In this document: one piece after another, positions 6,620 through 63,639 of the stretch
Layout of the letters: the number at the start of each line of letters is the position of its first letter
How positions within the stretch are numbered: the first letter of the stretch is position 1
Assembly: GCA_044378095.1 (NCBI GenBank)
Contig: JBILXX010000005.1
Coordinates: forward strand, 55 to 64,054
Reading direction: 5' to 3'
DNA length: 64,000 bases
Source of the DNA: Polaromonas sp.
GTDB taxonomy: Bacteria; Pseudomonadota; Gammaproteobacteria; Burkholderiales; Burkholderiaceae_C
The notes under the pieces: generated by a model
Database searches by the model: none
The model's input: only the letters and a program-made list of their open reading frames with translations
Told to the model about the DNA's origin: nothing
Made by a program: the position numbers and the translations under genes

Positions 6620-6681
6620 CAGGTGTCATTTATGGCATTTGACCAATGAATACGGGGGCAAACAGCTCCTGATTTCATAGC
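6620..6681 (-). repeat. Dispersed repeat family A, copy 1 (intergenic, after ffh)
   Basis: Minus strand GCTATGAAATCAGGAGCTGTTTGCCCCCGTATTCATTGG; left end approximate. Confidence 0.8.
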
Positions 6682-6769
6682 TTCAAAGCCACTCGACTAT
6701 CCTTTTTCTGAGTCCCAGCACGGCAGCCAGCCTACAGTTGGCCGTCACTTCGGGGCGCAGACTCGGGTT

Positions 6770-8089
6770 ATGCCACAACCCGACATTTTCACCCTGAGCT
6801 GTATTACGGTTGGCTTGCTACTGATTGCCAAAACCCTGGGTGGCTCGTTCATTGCGCGTTTGCCGCTCAGCACCCCCATGTTGTACCTGGCTGTGGGCAT
6901 GGCCGTTGGTCCCTGGGGCTGGGGCTTGCTGGTATTGGACGCATTTGACAACATGCAGTTGCTGGAGCGGCTGACTGAAGTGGCCGTGCTGATATCGCTG
7001 TTCACGGCGGGCATGAAACTGGAACTGCCTCTGCGGGACAAACGCTGGCGTATTCCGGTTCAGCTGGCCACGGGATCGATGGCCTTGACCGTGGCGGCTA
7101 TCACGGCTGCAGGCGTCTGGCTTCTGAATTTGCCGCTGGGTGCGGCAGTTTTGCTGGGTGCGATTCTGGCGCCGACGGACCCGGTCCTGGCGTCAGATGT
7201 GCAGGTCTCTGACCCAGCCGATCGCGACCGCCTGCGCTTTGGCCTGACGGGCGAAGGCGGGCTGAACGATGGCACGGCTTTCCCGTTTGTGATGCTGGGG
7301 CTGGGGCTGCTGGGCCTGCATGATCTGGGCGACTGGCACTGGCGCTGGTGGGCGGTTGATGTGCTGTGGGCTGTTGCGGGCGGCCTGGCCTTGGGCTATG
7401 CGATGGGCACGGGGGTGGGGCGGGTGATTATTTACTTGCGTACCCAGCGGCGTGAAGCCTTGGGCTCAGACGAATTTATTGCCCTGGGTCTGATTGCGCT
7501 GACATATGGGCTGGCACTGCTCACATGGACTTACGGCTTTTTGGCGGTCTTTGCGGCGGGTCTGGCGCTCAGGCGGATTGACGAGCCGAAGGAGATGGCG
7601 ACACTCACGCCCAGAATCGAGGCAAGCGAACTCAGTGCGGAAGACCAGCGCGCCACTGGTAGCCATGCGCCGGCCCACATGATGCGGCAAGTCGAACGAT
7701 TTAACAGCCAGCTGGAAAGCTTTGCCGAGGTGGCCATCGTGCTGGTGGTGGGCGCACTGCTGGCAACAGTCGAATTTCGTTTTGACATGCTCTGGTTTGT
7801 TCCCCTGCTTTTTTTGGCGATTCGCCCTGCCGCTGTGGCCATTGGCCTGCTGGGCACAGACGCCAAACACTCCCAGCGACGCCTGATGGCCTGGTTTGGC
7901 ATACGCGGCATTGGCTCGCTGTATTACCTGCTGTATGCCATCAGTCACGGCATTGCAGAGCCGCTGGCGCAGCAGTTGTTGGCCATCACGCTGGCCGTCA
8001 TCGTGACATCGGTGATTGCGCATGGCATATCTGTCACGCCGCTGATGACGCGCTATGAAACCCGAAAAAAGGCCGCAAAAGGCTCATAA
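6770..8089 (+). CDS. CPA1-family cation:proton antiporter (NhaP-like)
   Basis: About 12 TM; LAPTDPVLAS, GEGGLNDGTAFP, WFGIRGIGSLYY. Confidence 0.9.
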   Translation: MPQPDIFTLSCITVGLLLIAKTLGGSFIARLPLSTPMLYLAVGMAVGPWGWGLLVLDAFDNMQLLERLTEVAVLISLFTAGMKLELPLRDKRWRIPVQLATGSMALTVAAITAAGVWLLNLPLGAAVLLGAILAPTDPVLASDVQVSDPADRDRLRFGLTGEGGLNDGTAFPFVMLGLGLLGLHDLGDWHWRWWAVDVLWAVAGGLALGYAMGTGVGRVIIYLRTQRREALGSDEFIALGLIALTYGLALLTWTYGFLAVFAAGLALRRIDEPKEMATLTPRIEASELSAEDQRATGSHAPAHMMRQVERFNSQLESFAEVAIVLVVGALLATVEFRFDMLWFVPLLFLAIRPAAVAIGLLGTDAKHSQRRLMAWFGIRGIGSLYYLLYAISHGIAEPLAQQLLAITLAVIVTSVIAHGISVTPLMTRYETRKKAAKGS

Positions 8090-8108
8090 AAGGCTCATAA
8101 AAGGCTCA
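8077..8108 (+). repeat. Short tandem repeat (AAAAGGCTCAT) about x3 spanning the antiporter stop codon
   Basis: AAAAGGCTCAT AAAAGGCTCAT AAAAGGCTCA read directly. Confidence 0.8.
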
Positions 8109-8110
8109 AT

Positions 8111-8173
8111 TTATATGTGTTTTAGTGCTTAAACCCAATGAATACGGGCGCAAGCAGCTCCTGTATAAATAGC
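8111..8173 (-). repeat. Dispersed repeat family A, copy 2
   Basis: Minus strand GCTATTTATACAGGAGCTGCTTGCGCCCGTATTCATTGGG. Confidence 0.9.
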
Positions 8174-8241
8174 GATTGAGTCAACGTCTTTCTATCTTTT
8201 TCATTCAACGCGTACGGTCAAAGTAACAGCCCGCTTTATGG

Positions 8242-9999
8242 CTACTTCACTGCTAACACAAGTGCAATCAGTTTGTTGAAAAAATCATGCACATCCTGAT
8301 GAATTTCGTCTGCCGTCATGACAGCTGCAACCCGTTCACGTGGCAACTCAATAGATGGATCGCCATTTCGCAGCGTGTGAAACAAAGACGCATCATTTTT
8401 GAAAAGAATCCGCTTGCCATCCACCTGTTGGAAGATGTTTGCGGAAACATCCCGCCAGTTTTTACCTCGGGGCAGCGTTAAATTTTCGTTAGCAAAAAAC
8501 TCATCGACTGATTGCATGACGCTAGCTGCGAATAAGTCATCTTCCCCAATCTGCAGACTTTGAGCCACCGCCCGCCGCCAGGCTGGCGCGACAAGCAGAT
8601 AGTTTTCAATGTTTTTTCGGCGCCACTCTGCAAGTGAAGGGTTATCTGCTTCGGGATGAAATGCCTCATCTTGACTGTCGAAGTCAAACAACATGAGATG
8701 TTGCACAGAGGGAATAATCTGTTTGAGTGCAGCGAAATGTTCCTTCGCAACTTTTTTCATTTCTGATTTACTGCCACCGCCCATGACTTTAAAGTGAATC
8801 TTGTCCATCACTGGCAGCGCATTGCATTGCTCTGCCCAAGCTCGAAGAATGCGCTCATCGCTCTCGCCTTCGACATAGACGATGTAAGGAGAACCTAGAA
8901 GTAACGCGATATCTTCATTGGATACTTCTGCCATAGCGCGTAACACTTCGGGTGTGGACTCAATACGCGTTGGTGCCTGCTTAAGCAAGGACAAAATTTG
9001 CTTTGGGTCTACACCTTTTGCAAATTCTTCTGCGTGTGTGGCGATAAGAAATTGCACGCCGTTTTCTGCTGATTTTTTTTTGAAATACTCCAGAATTTCA
9101 CGCTGCAAGTTCACGTGAAGGTGCGCATCAGGCTCATCCAGCAGCATCGTCGTCGGTTGGTAGCCATAAAAGAATGCCAGCAGTGTCAATGTCTGGTGAA
9201 AGCCGCTGCCACCGGCAATGATGTCCAAGGCTTTGTTATTCCGAATGCTGTCTGAAGCGACCTTTTTTGAATACTCTACTTTGATGTGAATGTCCTTTCC
9301 GTCTTCATATCTGGGACGCGCGAGGGTCACTGAGAACCAACGCTCCACGGTGCTGACCAGCTCAAGCCAATCGGGTGGCAGCGGCGTATTTTTAGTGGCA
9401 GGCGTGCCCGCAGGACACACGCGCAGCAATAAATTTCTGAGCACGCTGCCCGGTTGTCCTTTGCCTACTTGCTGGCGTATCGGCCCATCATCAAGCCGCT
9501 TTTCCATCGGCTCCAAGCCCGAAAACGGTGGAACATAAGCAATTTTAGGCAGCGACTGTTCGCAATCGCGAAACTTAGTCCAACCGCCGGCGGGTATGGC
9601 ATACAAGGTTTGACTGGTTTGAAAGCGCAGCTGAACTCCGAACTCACGCTCATGTTGATCGGAATCCCGCCAGTAGACGACGATATCAATCAGAATTAGT
9701 TTTGGCGGGCTTTTTTCAGCTGTACGTCCAAGGCCTACAACTTGGTCTTTCCAAAGCAGCCTGAACGCAGGAACCGGCAATGCCGTAAAGCTCGGCAAAA
9801 TGATTTGAATACCTTTTGATCCTCCGACCTTTCCTTGCTCGCTAGAAAATCCGTCCACGCAAAACTGCCAAATCGCCAACGCCTGCAAAACAGTGCTTTT
9901 ACCGCTGTTGTTACGCCCCACCAGCAAATCGAAGTCCTTAAATTCATACGATTGCTCGCTGATGCTTTTGAAGTTGCGTAGTGTCAGTTTGTGAATCAT
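8242..9999 (-). CDS. ABC-type ATPase plus TOPRIM nuclease (OLD family-like), stand-alone
   Basis: LTLRNFKSI, Walker A VGRNNSGKS, signature-like GGSGFHQ, Walker B LLDEPDAHLH, IATH; TOPRIM IVYVEGESDE, DxD (FDFD), RRKNIENYL. Visibly AT-richer than its flanks. Confidence 0.8.
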   Translation of the reverse strand: MIHKLTLRNFKSISEQSYEFKDFDLLVGRNNSGKSTVLQALAIWQFCVDGFSSEQGKVGGSKGIQIILPSFTALPVPAFRLLWKDQVVGLGRTAEKSPPKLILIDIVVYWRDSDQHEREFGVQLRFQTSQTLYAIPAGGWTKFRDCEQSLPKIAYVPPFSGLEPMEKRLDDGPIRQQVGKGQPGSVLRNLLLRVCPAGTPATKNTPLPPDWLELVSTVERWFSVTLARPRYEDGKDIHIKVEYSKKVASDSIRNNKALDIIAGGSGFHQTLTLLAFFYGYQPTTMLLDEPDAHLHVNLQREILEYFKKKSAENGVQFLIATHAEEFAKGVDPKQILSLLKQAPTRIESTPEVLRAMAEVSNEDIALLLGSPYIVYVEGESDERILRAWAEQCNALPVMDKIHFKVMGGGSKSEMKKVAKEHFAALKQIIPSVQHLMLFDFDSQDEAFHPEADNPSLAEWRRKNIENYLLVAPAWRRAVAQSLQIGEDDLFAASVMQSVDEFFANENLTLPRGKNWRDVSANIFQQVDGKRILFKNDASLFHTLRNGDPSIELPRERVAAVMTADEIHQDVHDFFNKLIALVLAVK

Positions 10000-10142
10000 T
10001 TAAACAGCCTTGTTTTTACAACCTTGCAAGTATTGTGCGCTACGCTATCGGTCAAGCAAATACTGATTTTCTATACCCTGTCTGCTGATATTGGCGCGAA
10101 TTGCCAAAAATTTCGAGTCAATTCGGATTCTGAAGGTATGTA

Positions 10143-10394
10143 TCTTTAGCTCCCCACTGGCAAAACGTTCCGCAACCCGTTTGGGACTTCACCATTGGCG
10201 GCTACCAGGTCATGAAAAAATGGCTCAGCTACCGTGAGCAGCGGGTGCTGGGCCGGGCGCTCACGATGGCCGAGATCATGGAAGTCACCGCGATGGCCAG
10301 GCGGCTGGCCGCGCTGGTGGGGCTGCAAGCTGCACTGGACGCCAATTACAAGGCGGTGGCGGTTGCAACCTGGACGTTTGGCAACGCAGACTGA
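10143..10394 (+). pseudogene. C-terminal remnant of a Type ISP restriction-modification enzyme
   Basis: The frame of the 10212 ORF reads HWQNVPQPVWDFTIGGYQVMKKWLSYREQRVLGRALT...RRLAALVGLQAALDANY, a typical Type ISP C-terminus. In-frame TGA at 10131; the rest of the gene is absent. Confidence 0.75.
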
Positions 10395-10403
10395 AATTTA
10401 AAT

Positions 10404-10460
10404 GCTATTAGTTCAGTAGCTACTTGCGCCCGTATTTATTGGTTTTCAGGTCTATTTGAC
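10404..10460 (+). repeat. Dispersed repeat family A, copy 3
   Basis: GCTATTAGTTCAGTAGCTACTTGCGCCCGTATTTATTGG. Confidence 0.9.
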
Positions 10461-10645
10461 AGGTAAAATGGCTTAAAAGCATCAAAAATGAGCCAAAAAT
10501 CCAATAATGACCACCAACACCTGCCCAGCAGGGCTTAAAGCCGACAAAACAAGGCAACTACTTGGCTTGAAGACGGCCGCACAGGCCGTTGTGTGGCAAG
10601 ATTCCTCTGTCAATTTAGACTTTCACAACTCAAAACCGAAATCAC

Positions 10646-10966
10646 ATGACCCATACCAATCGCCGCACCTTCATCATTCACACGGCCGCTGGCGCTTCTG
10701 CGCTGGTCGCTGGCCATGCCATGGCTCAGGCAGCTGCGCCTATGGTCAATGAAAAAGACCCAGCTGCCGCTGGCTTGGGCTACGCCGCGGACACCACCAA
10801 GGTCGATGCCAAAAAGTACCCCAAGCACACCAAAGAGCAAAATTGCGCCAACTGCCAGTTGTACACAGGCAAACCCAAAGAAGCCGCCGGCCCTTGCCCA
10901 CTGTTTGCTGGCAAGCAAGTCACGGCCAAGGGCTGGTGCAGTGCCTGGGTCAAGAAAGCGGCCTGA
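10646..10966 (+). CDS. High-potential iron-sulfur protein (HiPIP) with Tat signal
   Basis: Tat NRRTFII signal; VNEKDPAAAGLGY; four Cys in CANCQLY...CPLF...GWC. Confidence 0.93.
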   Translation: MTHTNRRTFIIHTAAGASALVAGHAMAQAAAPMVNEKDPAAAGLGYAADTTKVDAKKYPKHTKEQNCANCQLYTGKPKEAAGPCPLFAGKQVTAKGWCSAWVKKAA

Positions 10967-11038
10967 GTGAGCCAGCGGGCGCGAATAGCCCCGCACAACT
11001 GGCCAAGCGGCCAGACTTGGCAGGCTTCATCGGCTCCG

Positions 11039-11071: not shown

Positions 11072-11097
11072 AGACCTGATACCCGCTGAAGCAAACT

Positions 11098-16905: not shown

Positions 16906-18159
16906 ATGATCGCTTTCTGGATTTCAGCTGCAGTGCTTCTAGTATTGGCTCTTGCATTCGTGTTACCGGCGCTTCTGAAGTCAAAAGGTGATACCGATCA
17001 AACCACCGCCAGCGCAGCGCATGCCAACTTGGCCGTTTTGCGTAGCCAGCTCACGCAACTGGAGTCTGACCATGCATCAGGCAGCATCAGTGCCGGACAG
17101 CTGGCGCTGGCTACAAGCGAGATCGAACGCCGCGTGCTCGAAGAAGAAAGCGCACCGGAAACTGCTATAGCACCAGTCAAGTCAAAACGTACTGCATGGG
17201 CGCTGGGTTTCACCATTCCGCTGCTGGCAATTTTCATTTACGGTTTTTTGGGCAATATCAATGCCTTGAATCCTGCAAATTTGCAGGCCAGCCCAGAAAC
17301 TGACCCAACACCTGAGCAGATCGAAGCCATGGTCAGCGCTTTTGCCGCTCGTCTGGAGGCTGTGCCCGCCGCAGAAACACCTGACCCCAAGGCTTGGGAA
17401 ATGCTGGCCAGATCGTATGCCGCGATGCAAAAATTTACAGAAGCCAACAAAGCCTACAAGCGTGCCGTTGAGTTAAATCCCGGCAACGCGCAAATCATGG
17501 CCGACCACGCCGATGTGATTGCCATGCTCCAAGGCCAGAGCATGCTGGGCGAGCCGACCAGACTTTTCGAGCGAGCTCTGGTGTTGGACCCAAATAACCT
17601 CAAAGCCCTTGCGCTGGCAGGCAGCGCGGCATATGAGAAAAAAGATTTTGCCAAAGCCTTTCAGTATTGGACCAAGGCTCAAGGACTTGCCCCCCCGGGT
17701 GGCGAATTTGCCAAAGGTCTGGCCAGCAGCATTGAAGAGGCTCGGCTTGCGTCGGGTCAGCAGGCTGTTGCCCCGTCAGCAACTGACAAGTCAGCACCCA
17801 CACCCGTCGCGGCCACTGCCAACATTCAAGGCGTGGTCAGCCTGTCACCTGCATTGAAAGCCAGAGTCGCCCCTGACGACACCGTCTTCATCTTCGCCCG
17901 AGCCTCCCAAGGGCCAAGAATGCCACTGGCTATTTTGAAACGAAAAGCCAGCGAATTGCCCATCACCTTCACGCTGGACGACAGTACCGCCATGGCTGAC
18001 GAGCTCAAACTTTCCAGGTTCGAACTCGTCATCGTCGGTGCGCGAGTCTCCAAGACGGGCAATGCCATTCCCCAAAGTGGTGATTTGATCGGCCAAAGCT
18101 CACCCGTCAAAGCGGGCGGCAAAAAATTGACATTGACGATTGACGGCGTTCAACCTTAA
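16906..18159 (+). CDS. ccmI: Cytochrome c biogenesis TPR protein CcmI/CycH
   Basis: N-terminal TM, EIERRVLEE, TPR region, C-terminal domain VFIFARA..GPRMPLA..LPITFTLDD. Confidence 0.92.
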   Translation: MIAFWISAAVLLVLALAFVLPALLKSKGDTDQTTASAAHANLAVLRSQLTQLESDHASGSISAGQLALATSEIERRVLEEESAPETAIAPVKSKRTAWALGFTIPLLAIFIYGFLGNINALNPANLQASPETDPTPEQIEAMVSAFAARLEAVPAAETPDPKAWEMLARSYAAMQKFTEANKAYKRAVELNPGNAQIMADHADVIAMLQGQSMLGEPTRLFERALVLDPNNLKALALAGSAAYEKKDFAKAFQYWTKAQGLAPPGGEFAKGLASSIEEARLASGQQAVAPSATDKSAPTPVAATANIQGVVSLSPALKARVAPDDTVFIFARASQGPRMPLAILKRKASELPITFTLDDSTAMADELKLSRFELVIVGARVSKTGNAIPQSGDLIGQSSPVKAGGKKLTLTIDGVQP

Positions 18160-18173
18160 CGTCCTGTCGAGTT

Positions 18174-18230
18174 ACTATGTTTTCAGTAGCTGCTTGCGCA
18201 TGGATTTATTGAGCAAAAGCCGTTTTTGAC
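18174..18230 (+). repeat. Dispersed repeat family A, copy 4 (14 nt after ccmI stop)
   Basis: ACTATGTTTTCAGTAGCTGCTTGCGCATGGATTTATTGAGC. Confidence 0.85.
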
Positions 18231-18255
18231 GCCCGAATAAGTGCTCAAGCGGCTT

Positions 18256-30829: not shown

Positions 30830-30984
30830 CTCCGATGCGATGGCGCAGCAGCTTCAGTAAGGCGAGCAGCTCGCACGGCAAAAATTTTGCAGCCCAGCGC
30901 AGGATGCCGCTCAAAACGATTTGAAAGTGAACGAGACCTGTTTAGCGGGTTAAAACAAGTTTTGGGATTTATTTTGACTATTTC

Positions 30985-31046
30985 AAAGGCTATTTTTGGC
31001 CTTTTAGCCAACAAATACGGGCGCAAGCAGATCCTGAATTAATAGC
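30985..31046 (-). repeat. Dispersed repeat family A, copy 5 (overlaps the STAND-TPR stop codon)
   Basis: Minus strand TA|GCTATTAATTCAGGATCTGCTTGCGCCCGTATTTGTTGGC. Confidence 0.88.
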
Positions 31047-33428
31047 TAACTCAAGCCGTCAAGTGCTCGCCGTGCTGTCGCTAACTGCACGTCAAACGCG
31101 CCGGGGGTTTGTAGATTCACCTTTTCATACAAGGCTACCGCCTCTTTCGCGGCTTCTAGGGTGGCGGGGCGGTTGACAGTGTCACTTAAACAGCCTGCAA
31201 GGTTAAAGATGCTCATAGCTAAATCAGGCGTGTAGGCGACTGGGTTCGTTTCGGCCAAACGCCTGTAAATATCAGCCGCCTCTCGCGCAGCTTTCAGTGC
31301 GCCCGTATGGTCGCCGATTTCACCTAACCGGATTGCTAGGTTGTTGATGCCCCCTGCCAATAAGGGCGCGTATGCGGCTGGGTTCGTTTCGGCCAAGCGT
31401 CTATCAATCGCCACCGCCTCTTGTGCGGCTTTCACTGCGGCGCGGCGGTCGCCAGCTCCACTTAAACAGCTCGCCAAGTTGTTGATGCACATCGCCAAAT
31501 TAGGCTCGTAGGCGGCAAGGTTGGTTTTGGCCAAGCGCCTATAAATGGCCACCGCCTCTTGCGCGGCTTTCAATGCGCCGGGGCGGTCTCCCGTTTCGCT
31601 TAAAGAGCTGGCCAGATTGTTGATGCTCATCGCCAAGTCGGGCTCGTAAGCGGCGGGGTTGATTTCGACCAAGCGTCTGCGAATTTCCACCGCCTCTTGC
31701 GCAGCTTTCAATGCTCCTCGGCGGTCGCTAGTTGCGCTTAAATAACCTGCTAGATTATTCATGCTGATTGCCAAGTCTGACTCGTAGGCTGCGGGATTGG
31801 TTTTGGCCAAAGACCTGCAAATGGCCACCGCCTCTTGCGCGGCTTTGAGTGCGCCAGAGTGTTCTCCAGCTGAAGCCAAATACAAAGCATGATTGTTTAA
31901 TTGCGTTGCTTGTGCTGCGAGCTGATCAGCGTCAAGCACAATGCCATCAATTAGGGTGGCGGGCTTACTAATAGCAACAGCCAAATCAGCTAACGCCGTC
32001 CAGTTGGCCATGATTACAAAAGATCGTTTTAAACGGTTTGCAAAGTCTGAACCCGGCGCAGCTGCGTCTTGTAGCAACCCGGCCAGCGCAGCTGCATCTT
32101 GCGGCCTGCCCAGTTGCAAACGCACGGTTTGGTCATAAGCCTGCATGTGCCAGCGCTGTAGCGAAACGGTAACGCCAAACCAGTCAACTGGCGCAAGGCT
32201 GGCCAGCAGATTGGCATCAGTTGGCACGCCGCGCTTGGCAAGCGGGCTTTGCCAGTGCCACAGCAACACAGCCGCCAACAGGTCTGGCGCCAACGTCGGG
32301 TAGGTTTGGGTCAACTCATCAAGCGGCCAAACCTCTGCCAGTGCGCTGTGCAGCTTAGCCAGTGTGTTGGCGGGCCATTTGTAGGCATCGTTTAACTGGG
32401 TGTTGACAGCCGCCGCAGGCAAACCGTTGAGCAAGGTGGCAAAAGCCAGCACATCAGTCAGCACGCCTTTCGGCAGGCCGTGGCCTTCTTCGGCTTTTGT
32501 CCAACGGGCTTGCTCACGCGTGACGAGCGCTATCAGCAGATCCTTGCCGTTTAAAAACCGACGTGTTGGGTCTGGCGATTTTGACAAATGGATAGCCAGT
32601 GCAACGACGAATAAGGCGGTGCTGTGCAGTGGCGACTCGGTGAGCCATGCGTCAAAGTCTGCTTGACTCACGCTGGGAGCCGTGGGCGCAAGCCTGCTTA
32701 ACGACTGGGTGAGCAGGTTTAAGTTGCCTTTGCCTGCCAGCTCGCCCAGTGCCATGGGTGTGCTGGCGTAACTTTGCGCGCCTTGTTGGTTTAAAAGCGC
32801 ATTCACCCCTGCTGACAAACGGCAAAGCAGCAAAATGCGCAGCTTGTTTTTTTTGTTACCGGGTTGAATACCCTCTTTGGCCGCAGTAATCAATTGCGCC
32901 AGCCGCTCGGGCGAATGCTCGGGGTAGTCAACCACCACAATGGTGTTGCCCTGCCACGCCAAGCGCTGGGCTTGCTCAAATTTTGTCAAATTAACAAAGC
33001 CTCCCGCCCAGCGCTTGGTGTCAATCAGGCTTTGCGCAAACTCTGCGGCCAACCGCGTTTTACCAGTACCGCCGTCAGCCTGAATGACTTTAAAAGACAA
33101 TGCATGGTGCGAATTGGCCCAATCGCGCAGTTCTTTTTGTTCAGCTTCACGACCAATCAGCGGGGTCAGTCGGCAGCGCCAGTCCAGCCAAACGGCCTCC
33201 TTGCCTTGTGGGGATTCATTCCAGCCGATGGAGAGGTCAAAAGTTAGGGGTTTGCCGTCAATGGCGAGGCTGCTGGTGGTGGGTTTGAGTGAAAAATAGG
33301 CCACCGCATTGAGTACGACCGATAAGAAAAACCCAAAAGGCTCATAGTTGCCAGAAGGGTTACGCATCCACAGGACTCCCGTCAGCAAAAAAGCCAAAAT
33401 CAAAATCGATGAAACAACCTTAACCATG
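31046..33428 (-). CDS. 2TM - STAND-type P-loop NTPase - TPR repeat protein (NLR-like)
   Basis: Two N-terminal hydrophobic helices; LIGREAE; Walker A ADGGTGKTRLA; Walker B IVVVDYPE; LRILLLCR; six 46-aa TPR-like repeats. Start at 33428 or 33466. Confidence 0.8.
31100..31900 (-). repeat. Six tandem 138-bp (46-aa) TPR-coding repeats
   Basis: Anchor CCACCGCCTC-like at 31135, 31273, 31411, 31549, 31687, 31825 (138-bp spacing). Confidence 0.9.
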
Positions 33429-33535
33429 AGCGCCCCCCCCTGAGAGTTGAGTTTTTCTGGCTTCATGATACGTTGGCTTACACGGCTTGGGCAATGCGGA
33501 AACCGCATGAGAACGCCCCACAGGTTAGCCATTTT

Positions 33536-33595
33536 GCTATATTTTTAGGAGCTATTTGCGCCCGTTTTTATTGCCTTGCAGCCCTAAATGACAGG
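33536..33595 (+). repeat. Dispersed repeat family A, copy 6
   Basis: GCTATATTTTTAGGAGCTATTTGCGCCCGTTTTTATTGCC. Confidence 0.88.
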
Positions 33596-33689
33596 TATTT
33601 ATGGTTAAAAAGATACTCAAAAAGCCAGTTTGAACTTTGTGAACGATGCTATCAATGGTCAAAACCTTAAAAATCGTGCTTTTAAGCAC

Positions 33690-33762: not shown

Positions 33763-35313
33763 TCACCCATCCGCCCAGTCCCCAGCCCGCGCTACTGCCT
33801 TGTGCCAGCGCGCCAGCTTGGCGGCCCTTGCCTCAGCGCTCATTTGGGGTTCAAAGCGGCGGTCAACTTGCCATTGGCTGGCGATTTCATCCGCGCCTGA
33901 CCAAAAGCCGACCGCCAGCCCGGCCAGGTAGGCTGCGCCCAGGGCGGTGGTTTCTGTCACTTTGGGCCGCACGACCGGCACGCCTGAAAAGTCGGCCTGC
34001 ATTTGCATCAGCAGGTTGTTGGCCGATGCACCGCCGTCTACCCGCAGCTCTTTGAGGCCAACACCTGCGTCCTGGCTCATGGCGGTGAAGACGTCTGCGC
34101 TTTGCAGGGCGATGGCTTCCAGGGCGGCGCGCGCAATGTGGGCGCGGGTTGTGCCGCGAGTCAGCCCTAACATCGCGCCGCGTGCATAGGGGTCCCAGTT
34201 GGGTGTGCCCAGGCCGGTGAAGGCGGGGACCAGGTACACGTCGCCGCTGTCGGGCACGGATTCGGCCAGCGCCTGTACTTCAGCCGCCGAATCAATGATT
34301 TGCAGCCCGTCCCGCAGCCACTGGATGGTGGCGCCGCCCATGAAGACGCTGCCTTCTAAACAGTAGGTGGTTTTATCAAGCTGCCAGCCCACGGTGCTGA
34401 GCAGCTTGTTTTTAGACGCCACGGGCTGGCTGCCGGTATTCATCAACATGAAGCAGCCTGTGCCGTAGGTGTTTTTGGCCATGCCGGGATTGAGGCAAGC
34501 CTGCCCGAAGGTGGCGGCTTGCTGGTCGCCCGCGATGCCTGCTATCGGGATGGGTGTGCCGAAAAGTGAGTGGCTACTTTCCCCCACCACGCCGCTGCTG
34601 GTCACAACTTTGGGCAAGACTGATGGCGGAATGTTGAAAAGCGCGAGCAATTCGTCGTCCCACTGCAAAGTGTGGATGTTGAACAGCAGGGTGCGCGATG
34701 CGTTGCTGGCGTCCGTCACGTGAACCCCACCTAGATGAGCGCCGGTCAGGTTCCAAATCAGCCATGAATCCATCGTGCCAAAGGCCAGCTCGCCTTTATC
34801 CGCCCTGGCGCGCGCGCCGGGTGTGTTGTCCAGCAGCCAGGCCAGCTTGGTGGCTGAAAAGTAGGCGTCGAGTACCAGCCCGGTTTTTTGCTGAATCAGC
34901 TCGGCATGGCCTTGGCTGCGTAACTCGTCGCAGCGGCCAGCGGTGCGGCGGTCTTGCCAGACGATGGCGTTGGCCAGTGGCTGGCCGGTGTTGCGGTCCC
35001 ACAGCACAGTGGTTTCACGCTGGTTGGTGATGCCGATGGCGAGTATTTCAGTCTTTGACGGCGCTATTAAATCAGGAGCTGCTTGCGCCCGTATTGATTG
35101 ATCTATAGGCCGATTTGATGCCTTTTTCAGGCAGTTTTGAGCGGTTTTGAGCTGACTTTGCCAAATTTCTTGCGCATCATGCTCCACCCAGCCCGGCTGC
35201 GGGAAGATTTGGGCAAATTCAGCCTGCTCCACCGCCACGACGGAGCCGGCGTGGTCAAACAGCATGGCGCGGCTGGAGGTGGTGCCTTGGTCTAGGGAGA
35301 GGATGTAGCGCAT
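33763..35313 (-). CDS. glpK: Glycerol kinase with a repeat-derived insertion
   Basis: [50 protein letters not shown]. Confidence 0.97.
35063..35125 (+). repeat. Dispersed repeat family A, copy 8, in frame inside glpK (antisense)
   Basis: GCTATTAAATCAGGAGCTGCTTGCGCCCGTATTGATTG; encodes [19 protein letters not shown] just before [13 protein letters not shown]. Confidence 0.9.
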
Positions 35314-45420: not shown

Positions 45421-46287
45421 TCAAAGGTGGCCTAGCAAAGCCTGGCGCTCGGCCATGAGTTTTGCAATTTGGACATTGAGAGCGGCGCGTTGGCCAAGCT
45501 GGCTTTCTTTGCGGGCCTGGGTGCGCAGGCTGGCCAGTTGTTGGCCCAGCTGGTCGTAAGCGGCCAAAGAACTGCGGCGCTGGGCGGCGTGTGGTGCGCT
45601 GGGGCTGACGATGAACTGCCCGGTGTGTTCGGCTGCGGCCAGCGCTTCAATGGCGTGCAGCCAGTCGTTGTAGCGGGCATACAGGTCCCGACATTGACGT
45701 AGTGGGGCGCTGGCGCCTTGATTGAAGGCTAAATATTGAGAAAATTGGCCAGCAGCCCCCGCTCTATGTGCGCGAGCAGCTATTGATTTAGTAGTAACCA
45801 CTTGCTCCAGCACCATGGCGCTGCCTGTGCCCAGGCTAAGGCGTTTGTGGGCCAGGCTGAGTTGTTCAGTGCCGCCGTCAGCCCCGTTATGCGCGCTGGG
45901 CTGGCTGACGATGAGGACAACCGGGTAGGGAATGGTGCGGTGAATGAGTTCAATGAGCCGGGTCAGTTGTGCGCTGCCGCGCGAGGCTGACTTGGAAGAG
46001 CTGTGGCGCAGAACCGCGTGCAACACAGCAATCTCCAGATAGTCATGGGTGCCCGTTTGCCACACCGCCAAGCCGCAGGTGGCGGGCTTCAGAGCTGCCA
46101 GCCAGTGCAGCTCGGCCAGCAACTGATTGACGAGCCGCTTGTCTGCCGCTGTGCTGCCGGGCAGATTGGCGATTTGCTCTATGAGCAGTGTTTTGGCGAT
46201 GCGCTGGCCCACGCAGGCACTGGCGGGTAGGGCCAGGGCTTGCACCAGCGCGGGGGCTTGGCTGAATGGGTTGGCCGCCTTGGTCAT
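45421..46287 (-). CDS. DUF4391-family protein
   Basis: WLAALKP, DYLEIAVL, IHRTIPYPVVL, SLAHKR, C-terminal coiled coil KESQLGQRAALNVQI; ATGA overlap with the helicase. Confidence 0.82.
   Translation of the reverse strand: MTKAANPFSQAPALVQALALPASACVGQRIAKTLLIEQIANLPGSTAADKRLVNQLLAELHWLAALKPATCGLAVWQTGTHDYLEIAVLHAVLRHSSSKSASRGSAQLTRLIELIHRTIPYPVVLIVSQPSAHNGADGGTEQLSLAHKRLSLGTGSAMVLEQVVTTKSIAARAHRAGAAGQFSQYLAFNQGASAPLRQCRDLYARYNDWLHAIEALAAAEHTGQFIVSPSAPHAAQRRSSLAAYDQLGQQLASLRTQARKESQLGQRAALNVQIAKLMAERQALLGHL
45730..45795 (-). repeat. Dispersed repeat family A, copy 11, in frame inside the DUF4391 gene (sense)
   Basis: ACTACTAAATCAATAGCTGCTCGCGCACATAGAGCGGGGGCTGCTGGCCAATTTT; encodes TTKSIAARAHRAGAAGQF. 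Confidence 0.8.
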
Positions 46288-52997: not shown

Positions 52998-54194
52998 ATG
53001 GACCGTCGTCATTTCATTCGCGTCATCGGGGGTGGCAGCATCCTTGCGGCAACGGCAGTCAGCCAGTCGGGCTGCTCGGCGCTGTCCAGCAACTTGCCGG
53101 CTGAGGCGGTTGAAGCCTGGCAGGGGCCATCTGCCCAGGACACCGATCCACGCCGCCGGGCACTTGCTTATGCCATCACCGCACCCAATCCGCACAACCT
53201 GCAGCCCTGGCTGGCGGACCTGCGCGAGGCGAACGCCATCACGGTCTACACCGACCGCGAACGCGTGCTGCCCGAGACTGACCCGTTTGGCAGGCAGATT
53301 TTGATTGGCCACGGTGCCTTTATTGAACTGCTGGTGATAGCCCTGGCCAGCCAGGGCCTGACAGCGCAGGTGACGCTGTGGCCACAAGGCGAATTGCCCG
53401 CGACGCTCAAAGACTGGGACAAAAGACCGGTGGCGCGCATGACCCTGACACCCGCCACACCTGGCAGTGGGCCCGACGATTTGTTCAAGCAGATTTTGAT
53501 TCGCCGCACACCCAAAACCGATTTTGATGCCACGAAAACTGTCAGCGACGCCAGCCTGCAATCGCTGATAGCCAGCGTGACAAGCCCAGCCCTACGTGCT
53601 GCCGGAACGTCTGATGTATCACGCCTGCAGCCGCTGCGTGACCTGTGCTGGCAGTCAGCCAAAGTCGAACTGCTGACCCCGCGCACCATGATGGAAAGCA
53701 TCAAGCTGATCCGTCTGGGGCCTGACGAGATATTAAAGCACCGCGACGGCATCACCATCAACAGCCCGTTTTTGCGTGCCATGGGCTCTGTTGGCATGTT
53801 TGACCGCAGCGCACCACCCGCTGAAGGCAGCGCAGGCTATAAAAACGCCATGGCCCGGTTTGAAGGCCACAGCCGAACCGCGATGGGTTTTGTCTGGCTC
53901 AGCACGCCGGGCAACAGCCGCAGCCAGCAGATTGAAGCCGGACGCGCCTATGTGCGACTGCAGCTCAAAGCCACAGAACTTGGCTTGGGCGTTCACCCCA
54001 TGAGCCAGGCGCTGCAGGAGTTTGCCGAGATGAAGCCGTTTTTCAGCAAGGCCCATGAGCTGATGCTGGGCAAGCCAGCGCCCCAAAAGCCAACCGATGA
54101 CACCGTGCAGATGTTTTGCAGGCTGGGCTACTCAGCAGGCGCCGAGCCTGCATCACCCAGGCGACCACTGGACAAATTCATGTTGACGACCTGA
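52998..54194 (+). CDS. Tat-exported Acg/nitroreductase-like FMN-binding protein
   Basis: MDRRHF; APNPHNLQPW; DPFGRQILIGHG; AGRAYVRLQL..GLGVHPMSQ; RLGY. Confidence 0.8.
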   Translation: MDRRHFIRVIGGGSILAATAVSQSGCSALSSNLPAEAVEAWQGPSAQDTDPRRRALAYAITAPNPHNLQPWLADLREANAITVYTDRERVLPETDPFGRQILIGHGAFIELLVIALASQGLTAQVTLWPQGELPATLKDWDKRPVARMTLTPATPGSGPDDLFKQILIRRTPKTDFDATKTVSDASLQSLIASVTSPALRAAGTSDVSRLQPLRDLCWQSAKVELLTPRTMMESIKLIRLGPDEILKHRDGITINSPFLRAMGSVGMFDRSAPPAEGSAGYKNAMARFEGHSRTAMGFVWLSTPGNSRSQQIEAGRAYVRLQLKATELGLGVHPMSQALQEFAEMKPFFSKAHELMLGKPAPQKPTDDTVQMFCRLGYSAGAEPASPRRPLDKFMLTT

Positions 54195-54693
54195 GCCTGT
54201 GAACCAGGCCGTGGATGGCATGGGCAACCGTTGCCGAGCGTACGCTGGCGCGGTCGCCGTCAAAGCGCATCACCTCGGATGTCAACATGCCAGCGACTGA
54301 AAAGCCAAACCAGACGGTGCCCACGGGCTTGTCAATGCTTCCGCCAGTCGGCCCGGCCACGCCTGTCACAGCCACAGACACCTGCGCCTTCGAATGGCGG
54401 ATGGCCCCAAACGCCATGGCTCTGGCCACCGGCTCGCTCACCGCGCCGTGCTGGGCAATCAGCGCGGCATCCACGCCCAGCAGTTCTGTTTTAGCAGCGT
54501 TGGAATAGGTCACAAAACCGCGCTCAAACCAGGCGCTGGACCCAGCCAGGTCGGTGCAGGCGGCGGCGATCATGCCGCCTGTACAACTCTCGGCTGTGGC
54601 CAGAAAAAGGCCGTTTTCAAGCATCAAATCGGCCAATTGGCCAATAGGCGCGGGCGCAAGCAGCTCCTGATTCGATAGTGTATTTGACGTCAT
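54178..54693 (-). CDS. CinA-family (NMN deamidase PncC-like) protein
   Basis: ATAESCTGG, GSSAWFERGFVTYSN, GAVSEPVA, VTGVAGP, KPVGTVW. Confidence 0.92.
   Translation of the reverse strand: MTSNTLSNQELLAPAPIGQLADLMLENGLFLATAESCTGGMIAAACTDLAGSSAWFERGFVTYSNAAKTELLGVDAALIAQHGAVSEPVARAMAFGAIRHSKAQVSVAVTGVAGPTGGSIDKPVGTVWFGFSVAGMLTSEVMRFDGDRASVRSATVAHAIHGLVHRLRSST
54610..54679 (-). repeat. Dispersed repeat family A, copy 12, forming the CinA N-terminus (sense, different frame)
   Basis: ACTATCGAATCAGGAGCTGCTTGCGCCCGCGCCTATTGGCC; encodes LSNQELLAPAPIGQL. Confidence 0.8.
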
Positions 54694-55226
54694 ACAAACA
54701 TCCACAGAGCGATCACCAGCAGCGTACAGAACGCCGCCACAAAGTCGTCCAGCAAAATACCAAAGCCGCCGCGTGCGCCAAAACCCTTGAACAGCTGGTC
54801 AGCCCAGGCCACAGGGCCTGGCTTGACGGCATCAAAAAAGCGGAACAGCGCAAACGCCACCAGTTGCCCGGTAAAACCTGCGGGCATGATGAGCCACAGC
54901 ACCAGCCAGAAGGCCACCACCTCGTCCCACACGATGTTGCCAGGGTCCAGCACGCCCATGTTTTTGGCGGTGACGGTGCAAGCCCACCAGCCGACCAATG
55001 TTGAAAGCGCAATAACCACGCCCATCTGTGTGGCTGTCATCAGCGGGTACATTACCAAAAAAGCCAGCCATGCCCACAGGGTGCCTGCTGTGCCAGGTGC
55101 CACCGGGCTGAGCCCGGAACCAAAACCCAGCGCAATGAAATGGGCTGGATGCGCCAGTAAAAACCGGGCGTTGACTTTGGCTGGGGCGACAGGAGGCGTT
55201 GAATCTGATGGTGTCGCAAGGGTCAT
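54690..55226 (-). CDS. pgpA: Phosphatidylglycerophosphatase A
   Basis: ALGFGSGLSPVAPGT, DPGNIVWDEVVAF, FRFFDAVKP, GILLDD; start approximate. Confidence 0.92.
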   Translation of the reverse strand: MTLATPSDSTPPVAPAKVNARFLLAHPAHFIALGFGSGLSPVAPGTAGTLWAWLAFLVMYPLMTATQMGVVIALSTLVGWWACTVTAKNMGVLDPGNIVWDEVVAFWLVLWLIMPAGFTGQLVAFALFRFFDAVKPGPVAWADQLFKGFGARGGFGILLDDFVAAFCTLLVIALWMFV

Positions 55227-60551: not shown

Positions 60552-60569
60552 ATGAGTGATTTAAAACGG

Positions 60570-61706
60570 TTAAACAATGGCAAAGCCTTCAGTTCCCGCA
60601 GCCAGATCAATGGATTTTGCGCGCTGGGAATTAAGCTTGATTTGAAGGCGCAGGTCATTGACCGAATCTGCATTGCGCAAAGCGTCTTCGTAGGTGATGA
60701 CGTTCGTTTCATAAGCATCAAACAGCGCCTGGTCAAAGGTTTGCATGCCCAGATTGCGGCTTTTCTTCATGATCTCCTTGATTTCGGAGACTTCACCTTT
60801 GAAGATCAGGTCAGAAATCAACGGCGTATTGAGCATCACCTCGACCACAGCCGCCCTGCCCTTGCTGTCCTGCTTGGGGATAAGGCGCTGCGACACCATG
60901 GCTTTGAGGTTGAGCGACAAGTCCATCAGAAGTTGGGCGCGGCGCTCTTCAGGGAAGAAGTTGATGATGCGGTCCAGCGCCTGGTTGGCACTGTTGGCGT
61001 GCAAGGTACACAGGCACAGGTGACCCGTTTCTGCAAAAGCGATGGCGTGCTCCATGGTTTCACGGTCGCGCACCTCGCCCATCAAAATCACATCCGGTGC
61101 CTGGCGGAGCGTGTTTTTAAGTGCAGCTTCCCAGCTGTCGGTGTCCAGGCCAACTTCACGCTGGGTGATGACGCAGTTTTTATGCGGGTGAACAAACTCG
61201 ACCGGGTCTTCAATCGTGATGATGTGGCCATACGACTCTTCGTTACGCCAATCGACCATCGCTGCCAGCGTGGTGGACTTGCCTGAACCTGTAGCACCGA
61301 CCAAAATCGTCAGGCCGCGCTTGGCCATGACCACCTCTTTGAGCACCTGGGGCACGCCCAGCCCGTCAATCGTTGGCAACACAGCCGGAATCACCCGCAT
61401 CACCATGCCGACCTTGCCCTGCTGGATAAAAGCATTGACCCGAAAACGACCCACACCCGGCGGGCTGATGGCAAAGTTGCATTCCTTGGTGCGCTCAAAC
61501 TCCGCAGCCTGCTTGTCGTTCATGATGGCGCGTGCCAAAGCCAGCGTATGACCAGCATTGAGCGGCTGCGGCGAAACCTTGGTGATTTTGCCGTCCACCT
61601 TCATGGCAGGCGGAAAGTCGCCAGTGATGAACAAGTCACTGCCATTGCGGCTGACCATCAGCTTTAAAAGGTCATTGATGAATTTACTGGCCTGGTCGCG
61701 TTCCAT
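60570..61706 (-). CDS. pilU: Type IV pilus retraction ATPase PilU
   Basis: GATGSGKST, TIEDPVE, AETGHL, GMQTFDQAL. Confidence 0.95.
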   Translation of the reverse strand: MERDQASKFINDLLKLMVSRNGSDLFITGDFPPAMKVDGKITKVSPQPLNAGHTLALARAIMNDKQAAEFERTKECNFAISPPGVGRFRVNAFIQQGKVGMVMRVIPAVLPTIDGLGVPQVLKEVVMAKRGLTILVGATGSGKSTTLAAMVDWRNEESYGHIITIEDPVEFVHPHKNCVITQREVGLDTDSWEAALKNTLRQAPDVILMGEVRDRETMEHAIAFAETGHLCLCTLHANSANQALDRIINFFPEERRAQLLMDLSLNLKAMVSQRLIPKQDSKGRAAVVEVMLNTPLISDLIFKGEVSEIKEIMKKSRNLGMQTFDQALFDAYETNVITYEDALRNADSVNDLRLQIKLNSQRAKSIDLAAGTEGFAIV

Positions 61707-61748
61707 GAAAAACTCCTAAATTTGTTGACTTCCCCGCTTCTTCAAGCA

Positions 61749-61836
61749 GGGGCCGCGGAACTGGCTTTGCCAGGCCGCAGGCGCAGCGGCCCCCTCGGGG
61801 GGCACGGCGCTACACGCAGTGAGCAACCGTGGGGGG
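61749..61836. repeat. GC-rich multi-hairpin REP/MITE-like element (family B) between pilT and pilU
   Basis: GGGGCCGC/GCGGCCCC stem with inner CTGGC-TTT-GCCAG; CCCCC-TC-GGGGG; CACGG/CCGTG stem. Single copy here; resembles repeats recalled from Comamonadaceae. Confidence 0.5.
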
Positions 61837-61842
61837 ACATAT

Positions 61843-62886
61843 CTAGCCTGGGAAATTCTCGGGTATTTTTGCTTTCCCGCGCGCTTCAGCCGCAGAAATC
61901 ACGTTGCGCTTGACCAGATCCGTCAGGTTTTGGTCCAGCGTTTGCATGCCCACGCTGTTGCCGGTTTGAATCGACGAATACATTTGTGCCACTTTGGCCT
62001 CGCGAATCAGATTGCGGATAGCACTGGTGCCCAACATGATTTCATGGGCCGCCACCCGGCCCTGCCCGTCTTTGGTTTTACAAAGCGTTTGTGAGATGAC
62101 GGCCTGCAAGGACTCTGACAACATCGAGCGGATCATTTCCTTTTCTTCTGCCGGAAACACGTCGATGATCCGGTCAATCGTTTTGGCGGCACTGGATGTG
62201 TGCAGCGTGCCAAACACCAGGTGTCCCGTTTCAGCCGCCGACATGGCCAGGCGAATGGTTTCCAGGTCACGCATCTCGCCGACCAGAATGGCGTCCGGGT
62301 CTTCACGCAGTGCGGATTTGAGCGCGGCTTGAAAGCTCAGGGTGTGCGGGCCCACCTCTCGCTGGTTGATCAGACACTTTTTGGATTCATGCACAAACTC
62401 AATCGGGTCTTCAACCGTGAGGATGTGGCCGTACTCGTTTTCATTGAGGTAGTTGACCATGGCCGCCAGTGTGGTGGACTTGCCCGAGCCAGTTGGTCCG
62501 GTCACCAGCACCATGCCGCGCGGCTTCATGGCCAGGTCACCAAAAATCTTGGGGGCATTGAGCTGCTCAAGCGTCAGGATTTTTGAAGGGATGGTTCGCA
62601 GTACCGCACCTGCACCACGGTTGTGGTTAAAAGCGTTAACCCGAAAGCGCGCCAGACCATCAATTTCAAACGAAAAGTCGACTTCCAGAAACTCTTCGTA
62701 GTTCTTGCGCTGGGTGTCGTTCATGATGTCGTACACCATCGAATGCACCTGCTTGTGGTCCAGTGGGTCAACGTTGATGCGTCGTACATCACCATGCACA
62801 CGTATCATAGGTGGCAGCCCGGCGGACAGGTGCAGGTCGGAGGCCTTGTTTTTGACACTGAAGGCCAGCAGCTGGGTAATATCCAT
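61843..62886 (-). CDS. pilT: Type IV pilus retraction ATPase PilT
   Basis: ASDLHLSAG, GPTGSGKST, AIRNLIRE, GMQTLDQ. Confidence 0.97.
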   Translation of the reverse strand: MDITQLLAFSVKNKASDLHLSAGLPPMIRVHGDVRRINVDPLDHKQVHSMVYDIMNDTQRKNYEEFLEVDFSFEIDGLARFRVNAFNHNRGAGAVLRTIPSKILTLEQLNAPKIFGDLAMKPRGMVLVTGPTGSGKSTTLAAMVNYLNENEYGHILTVEDPIEFVHESKKCLINQREVGPHTLSFQAALKSALREDPDAILVGEMRDLETIRLAMSAAETGHLVFGTLHTSSAAKTIDRIIDVFPAEEKEMIRSMLSESLQAVISQTLCKTKDGQGRVAAHEIMLGTSAIRNLIREAKVAQMYSSIQTGNSVGMQTLDQNLTDLVKRNVISAAEARGKAKIPENFPG

Positions 62887-62943
62887 CCCGAAAATCCTTA
62901 AAGCATGTAGGACAAAATCGTTGAGCTTGCAGTTTACAGTCGA

Positions 62944-63639
62944 ATGATGACCATGATCGTGAGAAATTTACAGGGTGTACGTGACCGCATCACGACCGCC
63001 TGCTTTGCAGCGGGGCGCCACCCGGACAGCGTGAAATTACTGGCCGTGTCCAAAACTTTTGGTGCAGACGCCGTGCTTGACGCAATGAGCGACGGGCAGC
63101 GCGCGTTTGGTGAGAACTACATTGCCGAGGGCGTGGAAAAAATCACCGCGCTGCGCGGCCATACAGGGCTTGAATGGCACTGCATTGGCCCGATACAAAG
63201 CAACAAAACCCGGCTGGTGGCCGAGCATTTTGACTGGGTGCAATCGGTTGACCGCCTGAAGATTGCGCAACGCCTGAGCGAGCAGAGGCCGCCGCACCTT
63301 GCGCCACTGCAAATCTGCCTGCAAGTCAATCTGGATGGGGGCGCCAATAAATCCGGGGTTTCGCCTGATGAGCTGATGGCACTGGTCGGGCAAGTGGTCC
63401 AGTTGCCGAATTTGAGGTTACGGGGCCTGATGACGATACCCGAGCCAGCGATTAATTTTGTAGCTGCTTGCGCCCTGCATTCGAGCGCAAAAGTCCTGTT
63501 TGACCAGATAAACAGTGCCGATGTATTACCAGAGATGATGGACACACTGTCGATGGGCATGACGGCGGACCTGGAAGCTGCGATTCACTCGGGCAGCACG
63601 ATGGTGCGTGTGGGTTCAGCGATTTTTGGGGCAAGATAG
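62944..63639 (+). CDS. yggS: PLP homeostasis protein YggS
   Basis: LLAVSKT, FGENY, WHCIGPIQSNK, LSMGMTADLE, VRVGSAIFGAR. Confidence 0.96.
   Translation: MMTMIVRNLQGVRDRITTACFAAGRHPDSVKLLAVSKTFGADAVLDAMSDGQRAFGENYIAEGVEKITALRGHTGLEWHCIGPIQSNKTRLVAEHFDWVQSVDRLKIAQRLSEQRPPHLAPLQICLQVNLDGGANKSGVSPDELMALVGQVVQLPNLRLRGLMTIPEPAINFVAACALHSSAKVLFDQINSADVLPEMMDTLSMGMTADLEAAIHSGSTMVRVGSAIFGAR
63448..63503 (+). repeat. Dispersed repeat family A, copy 13, in frame inside yggS (sense, diverged)
   Basis: GCGATTAATTTTGTAGCTGCTTGCGCCCTGCATTCGAGCGCAAAAGTCCTGTTTGA; encodes AINFVAACALHSSAKVLFD. Confidence 0.7.

Follow-up and report, generated by a model that had tools for sequence, protein, structure and literature searches.

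Rickettsia palindromic elements (RPEs; Ogata et al. 2000, 2002) are small interspersed repeats that lie in frame inside unrelated housekeeping genes, and 44 RPE insertions into genes are reported for Rickettsia conorii, as set out in passages of PMC10969869. Other small, high-copy repeats of bacterial genomes include transposable elements of the miniature inverted-repeat type (MITEs), among them the Correia elements of Neisseria and QMITE of Coxiella, and repetitive extragenic palindromic (REP) sequences with the REP doublets that form hairpins (REPINs). The uptake signal sequences (USS) of Haemophilus and the DNA uptake sequences (DUS) of Neisseria have a core of 9-12 nt, helically phased A/T tracts beside the core, and taxon-specific dialects. 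Here we describe a dispersed DNA element of Polaromonas sp. that is represented by 13 sites in a stretch of 64,000 nt (contig JBILXX010000005.1, positions 55 to 64,054, of assembly GCA_044378095.1; hereafter the window, in which position 1 is the first base) and that occurs in hundreds of copies in the genome, both between genes and, translated in frame, within them. We interpret it, with moderate confidence, as an old interspersed element of the Comamonadaceae, present in about 600 copies, that spread by duplication, is constrained at the DNA level and has a sequence-specific role.

In behaviour the element is closest to RPEs, yet it is not a member of that family. Both are small non-coding repeats that occur between genes and in frame in housekeeping genes, with a peptide encoded at tolerant sites, and both have old copies common to several species and no known transposase. 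The RPE parallel, drawn in a first-pass annotation of the window, holds for behaviour only (presence in frame in unrelated genes), because the element is not palindromic; its fold z-scores are about 0 and no covariation is seen. Further differences are the lack of a hairpin, a consensus with stop codons in nearly all frames where RPEs have a built-in open frame, the overwriting of codons without added length by about half of the testable in-gene copies, a host that is a free-living betaproteobacterium, and 62-111 in-gene copies in one genome against the 44 given for R. conorii in the same passages of PMC10969869. The comparison is one of behaviour and description.

Like MITEs (PMC10969869, PMC5896051), the element is small, AT-rich relative to the genome, high-copy and non-autonomous, forms occasional in-frame fusions and is depleted from promoter regions; unlike them, it has one sharp end and one fuzzy, repeat-built end, and neither terminal inverted repeats nor a cognate insertion sequence (IS) was found for it; no target duplication was evident. 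A MITE is reported for Polaromonas JS666 in a passage of PMC10969869. The element resembles REP sequences and REPINs (PMC3337134, PMC3733652) in having hundreds of vertically inherited copies at the 3' ends of genes, and may be likened to them also as a boundary, REP sequences being known targets and boundaries of other mobile DNA (PMC3337134, PMC3733652), but it has neither the GC-rich palindrome of 20-40 nt nor the GTAG or CGTC tag, and the single gene of the genome that resembles a REP-associated tyrosine transposase (RAYT) is flanked by another inverted repeat. It differs from the attC sites of integrons in that its copies are dispersed, not palindromic, and not gathered in a single array. 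Likenesses to USS and DUS are high density, both orientations, positions in and between genes, same-length in-gene copies, a core set beside phased A/T tracts, DNA-level constraint, dialects and the lack of a transposase, whereas the conserved region of ~45-65 nt (core of at least 45 nt, as opposed to 9-12 nt) and the discrete net insertions are differences. No description of the element was found in the searchable literature and its exact core strings occur in no relevant paper, the JS666 MITE not having been compared.

Anatomy, copy number and distribution of the element

All 13 copies that the first-pass annotation had listed are present in the window at the positions and on the strands given, by repeat finding and in the aligned sites. 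A profile (nhmmer) was built from ten of them, and its top 13 matches in the window, with filters off, are exactly the same 13 sites. Ten copies score 54.6-64.9 bits (E 2e-19 to 4e-16), as the strong copies must by construction against their own profile; the same profile gives the genome-wide matches. The three weak copies are those in yggS (17.3 bits, E 1.6e-4), ubiA (16.5 bits, E 2.9e-4) and a DUF4391 gene (12.7 bits, E 4.6e-3), and the best match after the 13 has 6.7 bits (E 0.35). The window copies and two associated genes are as follows, with reference to the closest genome (G030, labelled Polaromonas sp. by NCBI).

6608..6684, minus strand: intergenic copy, 63.9 bits; orthologous copy at the same site in G030
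8071..8175, minus strand: copy, 64.4 bits; absent from G030 along with the adjoining cassette
8242..9999, minus strand: OLD-like ATPase gene (AAA_15/AAA_21), a cassette between inverted element copies
10402..10477, plus strand: intergenic copy, 61.6 bits; orthologous copy in G030
18170..18247, plus strand: intergenic copy, 55.3 bits; begins 11 nt past the stop of the open reading frame (ORF) 16906-18159
30973..31048, minus strand: copy, 60.4 bits; shares its first base with the STAND-TPR gene, where that base closes the TAG stop
31046..33532, minus strand: STAND/TPR NTPase gene, with inverted element copies on both sides at distances of 0 nt (stop) and 3 nt (start)
33534..33609, plus strand: intergenic copy, 56.5 bits
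33682..33759, minus strand: intergenic copy, 61.9 bits; convergent with the copy at 33534..33609
35060..35131, plus strand: copy in glpK (33763-35313, minus strand), read antisense; net insertion of ~20 amino acids (aa) in a loop
37487..37540, plus strand: weak, worn copy in ubiA (37336-38217, minus strand), read antisense, 16.5 bits; net 0 to +4 aa
42825..42901, minus strand: copy in the type III mod gene (42317-44458, minus strand), sense frame 1; clean insertion of 18 aa
45768..45798, minus strand: weak partial match in the DUF4391 gene (45421-46287, minus strand), 12.7 bits; below significance on the scale of the whole genome
54607..54682, minus strand: copy that makes up the N-terminal segment of a CinA/PncC-like gene (54178-54705, minus strand) and is read in sense frame 2; net gain of 5 aa
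63448..63512, plus strand: weak element-like stretch in yggS (62944-63639), 17.3 bits; no indel relative to relatives

The scan of the whole assembly (G000; 3.5 Mb, 167 contigs, 56% GC) that the first-pass annotation had proposed yields 610 nhmmer matches at E<0.01, about one per 5.7 kb, and not just a few at background level; hundreds of them score 55-74 bits, and they are dispersed over all contigs and not confined to a single array. The bare 12-mer core, with two mismatches allowed, matches 31 times where 20.6 matches are expected, which is not above chance; the significance therefore lies in the whole unit of ~65 nt.

When 556 copies are stacked on their 5' ends, the 5' edge is sharp at GCTAT and the upstream flank carries no information. 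The edge opens a head of ~65 nt with strongly position-dependent conservation, which starts GCTAT-N7-(G/T)AGCTGCTTGCGCCCGTAT and has GCTA, AGCTGCTTGCGCC, GTAT and ATTGG as its best-conserved blocks. On the 3' side of the head is a variable tail of degenerate units of ~10 nt, each with an A4-5 or T4-5 tract, which vary in number until the tail fades at ~100-120 nt; the size of 55-90 bp first estimated for the repeat is close to these dimensions. The tail of the copy at 8173 (window 8040-8110) contains three tandem AAAAGGCTCAT-like units, and its A-tracts close ORF 6770-8089 by supplying three final codons and a stop; the G030 version of that ORF ends with codons of its own. Promoter and mini-ORF readings of the head were dropped on inspection, as the variable position would create stops. 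The suggestion that the 5' end is a LysR-type T-N11-A dyad is unsupported, any 5-N7-5 dyad having T-N11-A spacing.

A sequence-only covariance model matches 32 of 36 sampled genomes of the same genus, many of them at the scoring cap, 38 of 150 sampled genera of the same family (one genome per genus) and none of 24 genomes from other families of the order. The congeners without a match number four; one of them, G027, has none in 1.09 Mb even at E<10. Copies from other genera have the same core and a cleaner 5' dyad of the 5-N7-5 type (GCTAT-N7-ATAGC), and some have a second, GC dyad. We read these as DNA dyads, not proven RNA structures, that have largely decayed in this genus. A plasmid collection contains no match to the element, and the single, mostly partial copies on six viral contigs are uninformative.

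Positions relative to genes and copies read in frame

By our gene calls, 365 of the 610 cores are intergenic, 61 straddle the end of an ORF and 184 are inside ORFs. Between an upstream stop codon and the head end the median distance is 17 nt, and divergent promoter regions are depleted, holding 27 of the 325 intergenic copies that have genes on both sides. Orientation bias is weak, with 115 antisense and 86 sense copies in co-directional spacers, and 63 versus 48 in genes. Of 240 heads, 145 run counter to the locally G-rich (putative leading) strand and 95 follow it (p 0.0015); as 1040 genes are on the G-rich strand and 597 off it, the strand bias of heads probably follows from that of genes combined with the weak antisense preference.

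The proposal that a dispersed family is translated in frame is borne out at a far larger scale than that of the window: 111 copies are deep inside genes (counting only ORFs that score 40 or more and heads that keep 90 nt or more clear of either ORF end), and 62 of them score at least 40 bits. Of the six possible frames, antisense is used by 57 of the 111, sense frame 1 by 34 and sense frame 2 by 11, with three copies in each of the others. Only 2-22% of intergenic copies are open in a given frame, compared with 54-58% of random genomic 66-mers. Because intergenic copies thus carry stops in nearly every frame, in-gene copies are selected survivors that were stop-free from the start or became so later, and the element, unlike RPEs, is not built for translation.

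All element-bearing ORFs were compared by tblastn with the 1.09 Mb of the element-free congener G027, and the empty-site alleles sought by the first-pass annotation were found there. In 37 testable cases, the alignment with an orthologue, at 55% identity or more, extends past the element in both directions, and all 37 are true in-frame copies because orthologous protein sequence flanks them on either side. Relative to G027, 13 of the 37 copies bring a net gain of 8 aa or more (up to 24), seven a gain of 3 to 7 aa and 17 a change of about 0, and in none is the protein shorter; for the 17 copies of at least 40 bits the corresponding numbers are ten, two, five and none. Matches below about 30 bits in alanine-rich coding sequence are to be treated with caution.

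A decayed copy in G027 alone does not explain the same-length cases: the protein with the PurK copy (50 bits) is equal in length to the best-matching solved sequence of an N5-CAIR synthase (PurK), the CoaBC stretch aligns without a gap with CoaBC of M. smegmatis, and TruB differs by four residues from that of E. coli; selO also carries a same-length copy in this genome. In the same-length cases the native peptide is already element-like (in PurK, QQAQQAALQIA aligns with IRAQAATESIA), and at one insertion the native TINAMA aligns with the first codons of the element. Part of the spread into genes may accordingly have been conversion of short patches, seeded by homology; look-alike replacements that selection retained, or an insertion and then a compensating deletion, are alternative explanations.

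In the window, six copies occupy intact ORFs, and the peptides and frames first assigned to them are present: antisense in GlpK and UbiA, ATKIGAAYA in Mod, NQELLAP in CinA and AINFVAACA in YggS. The net insertions that were suspected in GlpK and Mod are real. Set against four orthologues from Comamonadaceae and Burkholderiales, GlpK is longer by ~20 residues, which lie between a helix and a strand; the insert is common to the closest metagenome-assembled genome (MAG), of the Comamonadaceae, and a diverged form is found in two Polaromonas-like MAGs. In an AlphaFold model of GlpK (the one protein modelled; mean predicted local distance difference test score, pLDDT, 88.6), the element peptide is a loop between helix 47-66 and strand 89-97, as expected of a surface insertion, and its residues 71-85, with pLDDT below 50, are the least confident segment. 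Mod has an insertion of 18 residues compared with six homologues from other taxa, which it shares with a 95%-identical protein and with G030. The C-terminal part of Mod (window 42317-42700) has two more lineage-specific insertions (~11 and ~6 aa), which are not element-like and are common to Mod and its two closest relatives.

Replacement of native sequence had been proposed for UbiA, YggS and CinA, and applies to the first and last of these. The N-terminal segment of the CinA-like protein is replaced, with a net gain of five residues, and UbiA differs in the loop before its last helices (net 0 to +4), where the orthologous copy of G030 scores 35 bits. YggS has no indel, and its AACA(V/L)H residues are also present in element-poor relatives, so the copy is not an insertion; the stretch is probably native sequence with partial resemblance to the element, or at most a short conversion patch. 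The DUF4391 match is too weak for interpretation.

Age, DNA-level constraint and element-bounded cassettes

In the 400 kb of G030 that were compared with G000, at 81-85% DNA identity, there are 70 copies of the element. Non-consensus bases are held in common at 49% between orthologous heads and at 18% between non-orthologous copies. Because orthologous heads share such private variants, the copies were inherited and not re-inserted, and the sharing argues against wholesale homogenisation. The identities between the two genomes are listed here.

Orthologous heads: 0.836
Non-orthologous heads: 0.731
Head positions at which the family is at least 85% conserved: 0.940
Head positions at which family conservation is below 65%: 0.691
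Fourfold degenerate sites, a neutral proxy (179 gene pairs, n=32,805): 0.671
Element-free intergenic DNA, a neutral proxy: 0.688 (from a spacer control with only two element-bearing spacers, used solely as a non-element baseline)

Family conservation correlates with orthologue identity position by position (Spearman 0.76, p 3e-10). Within five genes, third codon positions are more identical in the element segment (0.861) than in the rest of the gene (0.734, p 0.002), whereas amino-acid identity is lower in the element segment (0.826) than in the rest (0.891). The conserved positions, being 94% identical where the neutral proxies are 67-69% identical, indicate constraint on old copies at the DNA level, and judging from these alignments individual copies, including those in genes, appear to be constrained as DNA and not as protein. 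The question raised by the first-pass annotation, whether conservation is of the DNA or of the peptide, is thus answered in favour of the DNA.

Wherever G000 and G030 differ in length at an element site, the difference takes the form E versus E-X-E or E-X-E-X-E, where E is the element and X is a cassette of 0.5-15 kb with a type IIG restriction-modification (R-M) gene, a PIN toxin, an OLD-like ATPase or a STAND-TPR gene. The cassette of 4.2 kb at L112:13649-17947 of G030 (G030:C60:33649-37947) has 46% GC compared with 56% for the genome and no counterpart in G000; it encodes a type IIG-like methylase/endonuclease of 1024 aa (N6_Mtase, MmeI_Mtase, Eco57I) and a protein of 238 aa without a Pfam match. 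The type IIG R-M cassette is flanked by two direct copies with nearly identical heads, and its junctions fit a single crossover within the head. Another cassette of G030 holds the PIN toxin. In the opposite direction, window 8071-10388, comprising the OLD-like ATPase gene and the copy at 8173, is absent from G030, and in the STAND-TPR slot G030 has a divergent gene. Cassettes between direct repeats fit integration of a circle at a resident copy and deletion between neighbouring copies equally, whereas cassettes between inverted copies fit neither simply.

The window also holds other repeats. The STAND-TPR gene contains about five tandem units of 138 nt (window 31134-31823; 60-73% identical), which are its TPR_10/TPR_12 repeats. 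A direct repeat of 145 nt (window 61189-61333 and 62390-62534; 72% identical, 1,201 nt apart) is found in the adjacent minus-strand ORFs 60570-61706 and 61843-62886, which are probably tandem paralogues. Window 1-74, at the contig start, recurs at 99-100% identity in a congener, G022, on or close to the ends of many contigs, and at one place in G030, two genomes that are otherwise only ~80% identical to this one; it has the look of the terminus of an IS or transposon, shared in recent time, at which assemblies break.

Competing explanations and biological significance

On the reading that we favour, the element is a genus-specific version of an old element present in part of the Comamonadaceae, and would have multiplied to about 600 copies by copying into new places. 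Events of two kinds are visible in genes: some copies are true insertions, with 11-24 residues added, and others are patches that overwrite codons at unchanged length; in-gene copies would survive only where a stop-free variant and its frame hit a tolerant spot such as a loop or terminus. The copies are old and fixed in position in this lineage, and the constancy of the core comes from constraint on the DNA itself; the element would thus have acquired, or had from the outset, a sequence-specific role, most likely as a site of recombination or of recognition by a protein. Neighbouring copies also bound slots in which defence and toxin cassettes are gained or lost. The data show the family and its copy number, the translation in frame, the insertions and overwrites, the age of the copies, the position-specific constraint and the link with cassettes, and from these we deduce the duplicative spread, conversion as the means of overwriting and any role in the host.

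Several results weigh against this reading or limit it. None of the 34 G000 copies that could be mapped by both flanks shows a simple presence/absence difference relative to G030, at ~82% DNA identity; these sites give no sign of recent transposition, and because of them mobility is deduced only from the net insertions and the copy number. The activity after arrival of the R-M island that the first-pass annotation had proposed therefore holds in a relative sense only, island and copies alike being common to G030. The conservation estimate is partly conditioned on copies that are recognisable in both genomes, the test of silent sites within genes is based on five genes only, and purifying selection on single copies is not expected of a purely selfish element. 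At codon level, filled and empty sites show no obvious target duplication, in a comparison of old insertions with an empty-site species of ~70% protein identity, and there is no inverted match between the element ends that would make terminal inverted repeats. The gene calls were made with a simple, home-made codon-usage caller (2,946 genes, 87% coding), despite which 37 of the 37 copies checked against orthologues are true in-frame copies.

A mobilising enzyme for the element was likewise not found in the genome. The RAYT/Y1 or IS transposase with matching ends that had been suggested as a search target did not emerge: the sole Y1 transposase gene (IS200/RAYT-like, PF01797; G000:C101:35273-35977, 234 aa), which is outside the window, is flanked by inverted AATTGGGGTCAGACTCCAATTAA-type repeats (G000:C101:35175-36035) that differ from the element, and long repeats are nearly absent, a BLAST of the genome against itself giving five repeat pairs of at least 300 nt, none of which ends in the element, although MAG assemblies can lose IS copies. 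A RAYT was rejected as the mobiliser because the only Y1 transposase has these other flanking repeats; the Y1 gene and the AATTGGGGTCAGACTCCAATTAA-type repeats are a second, unrelated REP-like system in the genome.

A rather less probable account, but one to be taken seriously, is that the element is not a transposable element but a host signal, such as the binding site of a nucleoid, recombination or DNA-uptake protein, that is kept by selection or drive and copied by conversion. It would explain the position-specific purifying constraint on individual old copies, the many in-gene copies that overwrite codons without a change of length, the weak orientation bias relative to genes and the finding of no transposase, terminal inverted repeat or target-site duplication; the phased A/T tracts by the conserved core recall the layout of the Haemophilus uptake sequence, and the 5' 5-N7-5 dyad of other genera is of a kind that dimeric proteins bind. 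However, sharp-edged full units and clean insertions of 11-24 aa require a duplicative event and not point mutation, a core of at least 45 nt far exceeds any known uptake or nucleoid-protein site, and four copy-free congeners, including G027, thrive without the element. It is improbable that the element is a site of cassette exchange with a role like that of attC, such that a circle with one copy integrates at a resident copy to give E-X-E and is excised likewise. The E-X-E form of all G000-G030 differences at element sites, with their defence and toxin genes, the 46% GC of one cassette and the junctions of the type IIG R-M cassette would agree with such exchange, but the OLD-like and STAND cassettes of the window lie between inverted copies, which a single crossover cannot give, deletion between neighbouring direct repeats produces the same pattern passively, most copies, including the 111 in genes, have no cassette, and a dedicated integrase did not come to light (no search was made for intI itself).

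It is very unlikely that the element acts through RNA, whether as a small RNA, as a stabiliser or terminator in 3'-UTRs (untranslated regions) or as a cis-regulatory structure. The median distance of 17 nt from the upstream stop and the depletion of divergent promoter regions (27/325) would suit it, as would the short hairpins followed by T runs in some tails, but both orientations are common (115 versus 86 between genes, 63 versus 48 in genes) and the predictions of structure are all negative: an Rfam scan of the window matched only a tRNA and not the element, folds of eight single copies on both strands gave z-scores of about 0 (range -2.4 to +0.4) with no shared structure, RNAalifold predicted 0 pairs for 24 copies from 13 genomes, and in the same 24 copies the two proposed dyads had no covariation beyond shuffles. 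The idea that the copies resemble one another by chance or through composition, or that a conserved protein motif has been taken for a DNA repeat, is practically negligible. The matches in YggS, UbiA and DUF4391 and some low-scoring in-gene matches do overlap alanine-rich native AQAA/AACA stretches with core-like codons, but there are hundreds of matches of 55-74 bits, the majority of copies lie between genes, five or six frames are used to read the same DNA and G027 gives no match in its 1.09 Mb; chance is refuted for the strong copies and remains a caveat for matches below about 30 bits.

A further reading can be put forward only tentatively: the element may be a DNA signal of a clade within the Comamonadaceae, maintained by selection and recognised by a protein, which spreads both by insertion and by short-patch conversion that overwrites codons of conserved genes at constant protein length, and whose copies serve as portable recombination sites for defence and toxin cassettes. 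If this is true, it is a genome-wide cis-element that both remodels proteins and organises the accessory genome.

Colonisation of housekeeping genes in frame by a small repeat has so far been known at scale mainly from Rickettsia, which are obligate intracellular bacteria with decaying genomes. Here it occurs at a larger scale, with 62-111 translated copies in one genome of 3.5 Mb, in free-living Comamonadaceae of freshwater and soil, and it goes beyond the Rickettsia precedent in that about half of the testable in-gene copies replace codons at the same length and in that copies are constrained at the DNA level, which points to a function, or a drive, that is specific to the sequence. Gene callers can be misled by such copies at starts and stops, proteins gain lineage-specific loops from them, and the copies are ready markers for strain typing, while the element-free congeners are a natural control in the search for a partner protein. 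For the accessory genome of these bacteria, the element bounds the slots in which defence genes vary between species.

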